This document shows positions 1 to 1,441 of a DNA stretch of 4,535 nt, piece after piece. The notes beneath the pieces were generated by a model, which was not told the origin of the DNA, did no database searches, and was given only the letters and a program-made list of their open reading frames with translations. This stretch comes from a virus (lineage: Duplodnaviria > Heunggongvirae > Uroviricota > Caudoviricetes). Position 1 is the stretch's first letter. The number at the start of each line of letters is the position of its first letter. The position numbers and the translations under genes were made by a program. The DNA lies in the IMG/VR virus record IMGVR_UViG_2667527584_000004. The stretch is one strand, 5' to 3'.

Positions 1-325
1 CGGCAAGAGTCAGTAATTGTCCCTGGTCTTCCTGCAGAATAGTCAGGCGACCACCGCGATTGACATACATCGGCGTTTCGGTGGTGTCTTCTTCGGAAAT
101 TTTCCCGCGGTTAGTCGGACGAACATATGAGAGTTTGTGTTTTATTTTCACACGGTTCTCATCAAACGGTTCGATTTCCAGGTTGAGCGAGACCTTACCT
201 TTGGTTTTCGTGTTCATCACACCGGAAGCGACTTCACTGAGAACTGCGCCGATTTTGGTTTCAAATACGCCGCCGTCCAGCTCCCCGATAAATTCCTGCA
301 CGTTGGTACTGCGTTCGCTAGCCAT
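1..325 (-). CDS. Hypothetical prophage early-left protein; N-terminal ~108 codons only, gene continues past the window start
   Basis: Minus-strand reading frame open to the window edge, so absent from the ORF track. ATG at 325-323 with GAGGAG (338-333) 7 nt upstream. Translation begins MASERSTNVQEFIGELDGGVFETKIGAVLSEVASGVMNTKTKGKVSLNLEIEPFDENRVKIKH. Family not recognised. Confidence 0.7.
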   Translation of the reverse strand, partial: MASERSTNVQEFIGELDGGVFETKIGAVLSEVASGVMNTKTKGKVSLNLEIEPFDENRVKIKHKLSYVRPTNRGKISEEDTTETPMYVNRGGRLTILQEDQGQLLTLA

Positions 326-373
326 TTTGCTGCTCCTCATCATATCGACCCTGCAAGGTCGGTTGGTTTCTCC

Positions 374-462
374 ACAAAACAGAGAAGAACACCTGCGGTG
401 GCAGCCGCCCGGGTGGATTGGGTTATGAGCCCGTCGTCCGGTGATGCTCTTCTCTGTTTTGT
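374..462. repeat. 15-bp perfect inverted repeat (ACAAAACAGAGAAGA at 374-388, TCTTCTCTGTTTTGT at 448-462) around a 59-nt GC-rich spacer
   Basis: Read directly from the sequence; the arms are exact reverse complements. Confidence 0.8.
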
Positions 463-508
463 AAAAAGAGCGGTACCAGCCGGAAGCAAGGGTACAAGCT
501 GGTACCGC
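461..508 (-). terminator. Candidate intrinsic terminator for leftward transcription
   Basis: 11-bp perfect GC-rich stem (470-480 GCGGTACCAGC pairs with 498-508 GCTGGTACCGC) with a 17-nt loop. On the minus strand the stem is followed by TCTTTTT (469-463). No T-tract follows it on the plus strand. The loop is long for a canonical terminator. Confidence 0.45.
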
Positions 509-793
509 CAGGACTACACACAGCATAAAGTTGTGGTGCCGGGTGCCTCCCGGTGCCTGGCGAAGGTTGCACACCAGGCGGGTGGGTATCCACAGAAGGT
601 CGACTGTCAGCCTCAACCTTAACCCGCGTGCGCTGAGCCGCATTCACCACAACGCTAAGGATTCTCTCTGGTTGAAAATACTTAGCTGTTATGTGCCTGC
701 TTTTAGCCACATCAGGCGAGGTGGGCCTGGTTATTCCCCAACAACAAGGATTCGGCTAATCTGGATGACTCTGTTCTTAGAGGGGATAATTAA

Positions 794-1360: not shown

Positions 1361-1441
1361 CTAACGAATCATCCTGGACTTCATATGCCCCAGGCGGCTA
1401 CTTCGTGGGCGTCCTGCCTGTTTGTTGTTTCTCTTGGGTAC

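Follow-up and report, generated by a model that had tools for sequence, protein, structure and literature searches.

What does the block at positions 340-793, lying directly ahead of the first leftward early gene in a 4,535-nucleotide (nt) stretch of the virus record IMGVR_UViG_2667527584_000004, actually encode? The whole of that stretch is termed the window here. An initial annotation, made from the letters alone, had described the block as GC-rich, structured and non-coding, and had offered four options: a leader, an attenuator, an antitermination RNA conceptually like the put RNAs of phage HK022, or a small RNA. The window is 100% identical to a part of the genome of Escherichia coli ATCC 11775 (NZ_CP033092.2), from which the genome context and the calls of the Prokaryotic Genome Annotation Pipeline (PGAP) were taken, and it belongs to an e14/SfV-like lambdoid prophage, of which it covers the immunity region. 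Within it, the block forms the leftward leader of the early-left operon; the prophage, of the e14/SfV/ST64B lambdoid type, has no N gene. Read on the minus strand, in the direction of transcription from the leftward early promoter (PL), it contains an RNA core built as a five-helix junction, an intrinsic terminator, a long hairpin and a small hairpin (Table 1). Most of the features described in the initial annotation were found where it had placed them.

The minus strand of 320-800 was predicted to fold with a free energy of -193.1 kcal/mol, as against -156.3 +/- 5.7 kcal/mol in shuffled sequences (z-score, -6.4), so that the nested helices reported across the block are borne out; the z-score of the plus strand against shuffles was -3.3. 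The claimed excess of GC over both flanks was real (0.54 in 340-793, versus 0.50 in 1-339 and 0.435 in 794-1306), but modest and uneven, since the GC-rich portion is limited to 340-655 (0.58), whereas 656-793 has a content of 0.44.

The covariance search proposed in the initial annotation gave a single significant match in Rfam, to STnc100 (RF02076), extending over 683..461 of the minus strand and over the entire model (positions 1-206 of 206) at an expectation value (E) of 9.2e-8, with a sub-threshold score. The exact 22-mer CACCGGGAGGCACCCGGCACCA, at 555..534, is present in at least 120 IMG/VR contigs, and a model of the junction was built from 104 distinct cores in contigs carrying it, which fall into 39 clusters below 75% identity. 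Across these clusters, the fold of the core is conserved, as are several of its loops. A covariance model built from the core alignment (R1) assigned the window 88.5 bits with all 28 pairs canonical, window-type sequences and those of type B (see below) being part of the training set; copies outside the training set, from e14, ST64B and phiES15, scored 72.6, 81.7 and 82.7 bits, respectively. Covariation was computed on 134 R1 matches, representing 96 distinct sequences. Among these relatives, 93.7% of the core pair cells were standard-paired, versus 39-46% with slid partners, and the covariation score was 0.387, whereas the slid controls did not exceed 0.081; the observed values were not reached by any of 500 shuffles. 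Changes on both sides were found in 18 of the 28 pairs, and the compensatory changes for which the initial annotation had suggested a search are thus present. For example, P2 of the window (GCGGC/GC-A-CGC) and the closing helix of P3 are fully compensatory with respect to the canonical CCCCC/GG-A-GGG, and the Klebsiella copies carry a compensatory P5 (GGUGG-AGGCA-CCACC). Across the family, P3 comprises a 3-bp closing helix and a variable insert.

No sigma-70-like promoter adjoining the core was detected in 656-793, where the best match beside P1 reaches 6/12. The sequence TTAACA-16-AATTAT (813-786) was considered as a promoter belonging to the element and was dismissed, as it sits in moron-specific DNA that is absent from relatives. 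Because the core lacks a promoter of its own, PL most likely transcribes the block. On these grounds, the core is classified as a divergent, promoter-less member of the prophage small-RNA superfamily STnc100/PasD. No second copy of the core was found in the prophage, the whole of which is made up by the window together with L002 and L204. A pattern scan of genome contigs with CACCACAAN{3,14}TGCTGTGTG returned almost exclusively chance matches, and 2 of the 10 loci checked were real. The junction resembles a cloverleaf, and a tRNA- or tmRNA-like reading was rejected, given that ARAGORN reported nothing and that no tRNA-type match was obtained in Rfam at E up to 1. In the e14 copy of the core, P5 is damaged by a 1-nt deletion in the loop and a G-to-A change.

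The core is followed by a spacer whose central sequence, UGCUGUGUGWAGUC, is conserved in the versions from E. coli, Salmonella, Klebsiella, Cronobacter and Scandinavium, and which is a candidate seed or Hfq-proximal region. The terminator-like hairpin and T-tract, originally placed at 508-463, were located one position further on either side, with a stem of GGCGGUACCAGC and GCUGGUACCGC, a loop of 15-17 nt and then UCUUUUU (CUCUUUUU at 469-462); the tail, CGCUCUUUUUACAA, is also boxA-like. A consensus terminator scan missed this terminator because of the length of its loop. The stem takes other, compensatory forms in ST64B (GUCGGCGUC/GACGCCGAC), Klebsiella (GGCGGUUAUCC/GGAUAACCGCC) and phiES15 (GCCCGC/GCGGGC), and it is likewise swapped for a compensatory version in Scandinavium; all four retain the CUUUUU. 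The hairpin that had been described next as having a 15-bp stem is present, but its outer stem is really 20-25 bp and encloses a small inner three-way junction. In this long hairpin, 93.5% of the cells were paired, versus 39-53% with slid partners, and six pairs had changed on both sides among 12 lineages. A conserved GGAGAAA (373-367) at its end is able to pair with the U-tract of the terminator. In read-through transcripts the long hairpin would make up the 5' untranslated region (5'UTR), and it may represent a duplex of the RNase III type. The small hairpin is swapped for hairpins of the GGCGG-UGGCA-GCCGCC type in Salmonella, Klebsiella and Scandinavium, and the stems of all three elements (terminator, long hairpin and small hairpin) covary among the phages of E. 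coli and these three genera. The Shine-Dalgarno sequence and the ATG of the 1..325 gene follow, as described.

In ST64B (L205), Klebsiella Kp4866-6 (L206) and Scandinavium (L274), the terminator loop contains an extra hairpin with a strong Shine-Dalgarno-like AGGAGGAAG and a start codon. The resulting open reading frame (ORF) in Klebsiella has 54 codons, and its end overlaps the yfdP-like start in an ATGA; between the three lineages the frames are not conserved.

The statement that the block holds no credible ORF was upheld by the coding tests, although it needs qualification, since mechanical ORFs of 95-161 amino acids in the program-made list overlap the block. A 95-amino-acid ORF is open in the window, and PGAP annotates 340-650 of the minus strand as a frameshifted hypothetical protein, i.e., a pseudogene of the ymfH family. 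Moreover, the homologous DNA in the e14 prophage of E. coli K-12 (89.5% identical) is annotated as ymfH, with an intact ORF of 103 amino acids immediately upstream of xisE. On this evidence the block could be taken for a decayed protein-coding gene, the ymfH pseudogene of PGAP, in which the helices are incidental. The K-12 ORF, however, begins at a GTG within helix P1 and is not preceded by a ribosome-binding site, and its single frame is offset from that of the window by 1-nt deletions, the first of them in the P5 loop. Substitutions between the window and its homologues are flat with respect to codon position, with no excess in the third (11/13/9 for e14, 19/20/21 for ST64B, 15/23/20 for sal3, 21/29/24 for Klebsiella and 8/13/14 for phiES15), and 1-2 nt insertions and deletions are frequent in the same comparisons. 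In ST64B, Klebsiella and phiES15 the ymfH frame does not stay open, and in the window it is broken too. An intact ORF is thus retained among the homologues only on paper, as the K-12 ymfH, which fails every coding test. The neighbouring proteins scanned, a set that lies apart from the ORFs overlapping the block, gave no Pfam match. In view of the strong base-pair covariation, a decayed gene is barely credible, and 340-793 is judged to encode no protein.

A small ORF running through the long hairpin, open in the window, e14 and ST64B, was rejected as well: its substitutions are flat and its frame is broken in Klebsiella and Scandinavium. Nonsynonymous changes in this frame exceed synonymous ones (10:3, 7:3 and 12:4). 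The Shine-Dalgarno-like AGGAGG found in the terminator loop of some phages had been considered in connection with a hidden ORF of this kind.

To examine the modular structure of the leader, 80 IMG/VR loci with a near-identical YfdP were compared. Breaks in their homology to the window fall at 510, 724 or 764-766; the terminator and the hairpins are the constant parts, while the core is the variable one. In type B, the core has the same P1 arms, the AAU linker and a P5-like hairpin (CCGG-AGAUCAGCA-CCGG), and its R1 scores of 27-31 bits do not count as independent evidence, owing to the inclusion of type B in the training alignment. Rare natural variants without a core keep the terminator and the downstream genes. 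One phage type has a PL that lies between operator palindromes and fires straight into P1, which places the core at about +1. The first gene downstream of the element also varies, being yfdP, xisE or kil. The core therefore appears as an exchangeable cassette inserted between conserved flanks. Inserts designated type C were not counted as homologues, as they have only the P1 arms and the AAU in common with the family and score 6-8 bits with R1. Such an insert lies between the P1 arms GUUGUGGU...CCACCACAAC in L136, L145, L148 and others, where the distance to the terminator downstream is about 170 nt, and also in L329 and L335; its position suggests that cassettes are exchanged through recombination between P1 arms.

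The position typical of put, immediately after PL, is held not by the block but by a separate, unannotated element that the initial annotation had missed, designated here the PL-proximal leader element (PLE). Its invariant 28-mer, CAGGCAGGACGCCCACGAAGUAGCCGCC, starts at about +17 of the PL transcript. Of the 388 loci fetched, 91 contain it, as do 51 phage records, and its range takes in E. coli, Shigella, Salmonella, Klebsiella, Citrobacter, Pantoea, Yersinia, Pectobacterium and Aeromonas. Wherever the upstream side of a locus was inspected, the PLE comes shortly after a repressor gene and PL, and at least eight types of promoter/operator precede it. Its helices covary, both the closing P0 (CGAA/UUCG, CAUC/GAUG and CCACC/GGUGG) and stem II (CCUGG/CCAGG through to CUACC/GGUAG): 98.6% of the cells were paired, versus at most 54% with slid partners, and 8 of the 12 pairs had changed on both sides. 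Covariation was used for this element because minimum-free-energy folding gave z-scores near 0 for the PLE and for putL and putR of HK022, and is thus uninformative even for a genuine put. The PLE occurs once per phage and has no match in Rfam, and its own covariance model (R2) finds nothing in HK022. Words common to put and the PLE (CGAAC.G and AGGAUGA) were set aside as coincidence, for R2 misses put and the structural positions of the words differ.

Further along the leader, a hairpin (the moron terminator in reverse) precedes an rrn-type boxA, GCUCUUUAACAAUCU. A 12-mer of this boxA, GCTCTTTAACAA, is exact; it stands on the PL-sense strand, with the PL start about 100 nt upstream. Behind the PLE, this hairpin-boxA module recurs in many E. 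coli loci and is absent from e14, ST64B, Klebsiella and phiES15. By analogy with rrn boxA, it may provide Nus-factor protection from Rho over the untranslated leader of about 1.1 kb. The PLE is a candidate N-independent antitermination or leader element, and a better candidate for such a role than the core of the block. The N-less phages LLS and ST64B "may have a put RNA", the location of which was not given (PMC12315714); judged from its sequence, the PLE is the obvious candidate for it.

Taken together, the block is probably a PL-driven leader in which the junction RNA is released by termination as a small RNA, the terminator gates the genes from yfdP to int, and read-through yields an mRNA with a hairpin-containing 5'UTR. 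Upon inactivation of the repressor, transcription from PL would cross about 780 nt of untranslated RNA and produce the junction RNA. Much of this transcription would halt at the terminator, releasing a structured RNA with a hairpin-plus-U 3' end, which might act in trans, possibly via Hfq, by analogy with PasD and STnc100. The same terminator would restrict entry into yfdP...int, and those polymerases that read through would give rise to an mRNA whose 5'UTR duplex may tune its stability or translation. In K-12, ymfH shares an iModulon with xisE and intE, and no reliably active promoter is reported ahead of it (PMC12133099), which fits transcription from PL through the terminator. The options put forward in the initial annotation are thus supported in part: a PL-sense RNA, a core of the STnc100/PasD type, a conserved terminator and a location in the early-left leader all point to them, while the put analogy for the block was not supported.

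Several observations weigh against this interpretation. The STnc100 score of the window (45.4 bits) is below the gathering threshold of 47 bits, and no function has been demonstrated in the literature for either STnc100 or PasD. The rigid, invariant multi-helix fold is unusual for a small RNA that acts by simple base-pairing and hints at a role in binding a protein or the polymerase. Among prophage targets of the single-stranded motif, the best non-self site (-26.6 kcal/mol) was no better than those of shuffled seeds. A terminator loop of 15-17 nt is atypical of a strong terminator, and both the 3' end near 463 and termination there are predicted. Finally, if PL were the sole promoter, lysogens would lack the RNA, in contrast to PasD.

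Another explanation is a purely cis-acting leader or barrier: a tL-like terminator would gate the early-left operon, the hairpins would tune the stability or translation of the mRNA, and the junction would be there for folding, pausing or processing, with no role in trans. The constancy of the terminator and of the long and small hairpins, beside a core that is exchangeable (type A, type B, the Klebsiella version and type C) and occasionally missing, accords with this, as does the presence of the element upstream of differing first genes. It is nevertheless unlikely: the core keeps its fold and several of its loops through the 39 clusters, and the same fold occurs in late-region promoter-terminator cassettes, whose stand-alone nature argues for a function of the RNA itself. 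A put-like RNA, that is, processive antitermination by RNA only, in which the nascent junction RNA would bind RNA polymerase, read through the adjacent and later terminators and replace N, finds favour in the absence of an N gene, in the invariant loops (as expected of a binding surface) and in the position of the core, which a terminator always follows after about 20 nt, at the start of an operon whose expression is needed, and which in the one phage type mentioned begins at about +1 of PL. The suggestion of a put RNA in N-less relatives, made in a 2025 paper that located none (PMC12315714), points the same way. Yet the core has no similarity to put and differs from it in size and fold; it occurs in one copy per prophage, with none in the rightward (PR) or late operons; and natural variants without it retain the terminator and the genes. 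Furthermore, its own-promoter relatives lie directly upstream of holin and esterase genes, where self-antitermination would express lysis genes in lysogens, and the element at 1428..1361 is better placed for antitermination. A put-like function of the core is decidedly unlikely on this account. A broader proposal, rather unlikely as well, is early control by RNA only, in which the junction RNA, the 68-nt element or both would modify RNA polymerase so as to read through 509-462 and beyond, the antiterminator being unrelated in fold to put and the terminated product doubling as a small RNA.

A role of the RNA in bacterial immunity, as a decoy, sponge or trigger of a defence or other host system and not as a regulator of mRNA, is highly improbable. 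It is prompted by an overexpression clone of K-12 "ymfH" that is among the triggers of the retron-Sen2 toxin RcaT (bioRxiv 10.1101/2020.06.22.160242); this clone (L001 3002-3313, minus strand) includes the terminator, the long hairpin and all but a small part of the junction RNA, and the tandem arrays of three to five own-promoter relatives suggest a dosage effect. The authors of that study, however, credited the trigger effect to a protein, and the contexts surveyed showed no defence gene in consistent association with the RNA. The interpretation as a PL-driven leader that yields a small RNA by termination remains the preferred one.

Table 1. Features of the early-left leader and its surroundings (positions in the window; features on the minus strand run from the higher to the lower number).
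Feature	Position	Strand	Remarks
PL promoter, TTGACA-16-CATAAT	1469-1442	minus	directly after the ymfK terminator
PL-proximal leader element (PLE), 68 nt	1361..1428	minus	about +8 to +75 of the PL transcript; unannotated
Hairpin, then boxA	1317-1354	minus	boxA at 1332-1320
Leader, 5' part	656..793	minus	AT-richer; antisense to the moron promoter/start region
Hairpin H0, GCCUG...CAGGC	717-695	minus	
Hairpin H-1	686-654	minus	abuts P1
Five-helix-junction RNA core	528..655 (helices 653-530)	minus	classified as a divergent STnc100 superfamily member
P1, 8-9 bp	653-645 with 538-530	minus	
J1/2 linker, AAU	644-642	minus	
P2, 5 bp	641-626	minus	A bulge; UCAGC loop (family: UNNGC)
P3	625-580	minus	closing GGGU/ACCC and two hairpins
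Unpaired G	579	minus	
P4	578-556	minus	7 bp in the family
P5, CCGGG-AGGCA-CCCGG	553-539	minus	stacked directly on P1
Spacer, UUUAUGCUGUGUGUAGUCCU	510..529	minus	unpaired in the minimum-free-energy fold
Intrinsic terminator (predicted)	462..509	minus	hairpin 509-470, U-run 467-463; -23.7 kcal/mol
Long hairpin	462-374 (element 367..462)	minus	outer stem 462-443 with 393-374
Small hairpin, ACCGACC-UUGCA-GGGUCGAU	344..363	minus	just upstream of the yfdP ribosome-binding site
yfdP Shine-Dalgarno sequence, GAGGAG	339-334	minus	
yfdP, 5' part	325..1	minus	first early-left gene; ATG at 325-323; cut by the window edge
Divergent moron ORF	794-1306	plus	terminator of its own at 1332-1353
cI-like repressor gene ymfK	1509-2183	minus	

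Leftward beyond yfdP, the order in the genome is yfdQ, yfdR, two hypothetical ORFs and int, and on the other side ymfK is followed by the cro-like ymfT, ymfL, a DUF4222 gene and an O-like replication gene. The prophage possesses a late antiterminator of the Q type, while an N gene is absent; as had been noted initially, neither the list of minus-strand ORFs nor the annotation contains an N-like ORF between PL and 325. The moron ORF encodes 170 amino acids with a signal-peptide-like N-terminus and without a Pfam match, and is inserted antisense to transcription from PL; other phages carry other inserts, or none, at this position. Matches to the Rfam families of C4 antisense RNA and IsrK were observed near the immunity regions of related phages (L132, 209-397, minus strand; L205, 5232-5308).

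Most of the block is carried by about 1,600 of 5,426 complete E. coli genomes, in which RefSeq presents it as a hypothetical protein, a pseudogene or, in K-12, ymfH. The annotation thus calls for correction, an RNA gene just under the Rfam cut-off having been mislabelled as a protein, and the retron-trigger phenotype of "ymfH" may stem from the RNA and not from a protein. The STnc100/PasD fold is found at the head of operons in two contexts: with its own promoter in the late region after Q, often in tandem, and without a promoter in the early-left region after PL. In both, a terminator follows immediately, which narrows the hypotheses on the function of the family. For early-left expression in the N-less lambdoid phages (e14, SfV, ST64B and LLS), the analysis provides three RNA candidates, namely the junction RNA, the PLE and the rrn-type boxA, together with a defined terminator.

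Among the known systems with which the leader can be compared, the N/nut system of lambda differs in that the window has no N-like ORF and that its boxA stands in an rrn-like order, i.e., hairpin and then boxA. The "6S" RNA of lambda PR'-tR' and the StxS RNA of Stx2 phages provide a parallel in architecture, being short RNAs from the start of an operon that end at a terminator blocking the downstream genes, and canonical STnc100 copies fill the equivalent interval between Q and holin. The operon in the window, however, is that of PL and not PR' and has no known antiterminator protein, and the likeness is one of position and architecture. The RNase III hairpin of the lambda N leader and sib retroregulation similarly present a long, near-perfect duplex in an untranslated leader, directly upstream of the first early-left ribosome-binding site; the duplex in the window differs in enclosing a three-way junction and in having no sequence similarity to them, and an RNase III role for it is putative.

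The put RNAs of the N-less phage HK022, which work on RNA polymerase via the beta' zinc-binding domain and need no protein factor, are about 70 nt in length, with two stems of conserved structure (PMC9378689). Like put, the core is a structured RNA that lies in the PL transcript of an N-less phage upstream of terminators, and one of its relatives starts at the PL transcription start. In contrast to put, it is about 125 nt long with five helices, it lies about 780 nt from PL in the window, and it occurs as a single copy, with none on the PR side, whereas HK022 has putL after PL and putR after PR. An R1 search of HK022 yielded no match at E up to 1, and there was no match in sequence or structure to putL or putR. 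The put analogy drawn for the block in the initial annotation is thus disfavoured by size and fold, by the lack of a match in HK022, by copy number, by the core-less variants and by the holin-side cassettes.

The closest likeness is to STnc100 and PasD. PasD is an abundant small RNA of enteropathogenic E. coli, detected with Hfq by RIL-seq, validated by northern blotting and structurally related to STnc100 (10.64898/2026.05.13.724894), and STnc100 has been placed 75 nt downstream of stx2 (PMC12370729). Canonical copies of STnc100 belong to the late region: on one side of them is Q (PF03589 or PF06530) or a DNA methylase, and on the other are the sialate esterase/holin genes. They form cassettes of promoter, RNA and terminator, often two to five in tandem. 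Tandem arrays of three to five canonical copies, about 250 nt apart, were seen in L057 (4349-5513), L010 (2323-3353), L026 (1723-2344) and L018 (370-991), and an isrI RNA is interleaved within the array of L057. In contrast, the copy in the window lies between PL and yfdP. A promoter abutting P1 reaches at least 8/12 in 52 of 119 relatives, versus 6/12 in window-type copies, and the late-region relatives score 57-78 bits with the STnc100 model, as compared with 45.4 for the window and 35-41, or no detection, for the other PL-side copies. The window further differs in its compensatory P2 and P3 closing helix, its large terminator loop and its physical coupling to the long-hairpin 5'UTR. Nonetheless, the five-helix junction closed by P1 (..UGGUGAAU ... 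CACCA..), the architecture of P2, the invariant P5 hairpin, the spacer followed by an intrinsic terminator and the occurrence in prophages of Enterobacterales (10.64898/2026.05.13.724894) are the same. The block is therefore ordinary in kind: it is a new, sub-threshold and promoter-less variant of a known family of prophage small RNAs, fused to a leader composed of a terminator and hairpins.

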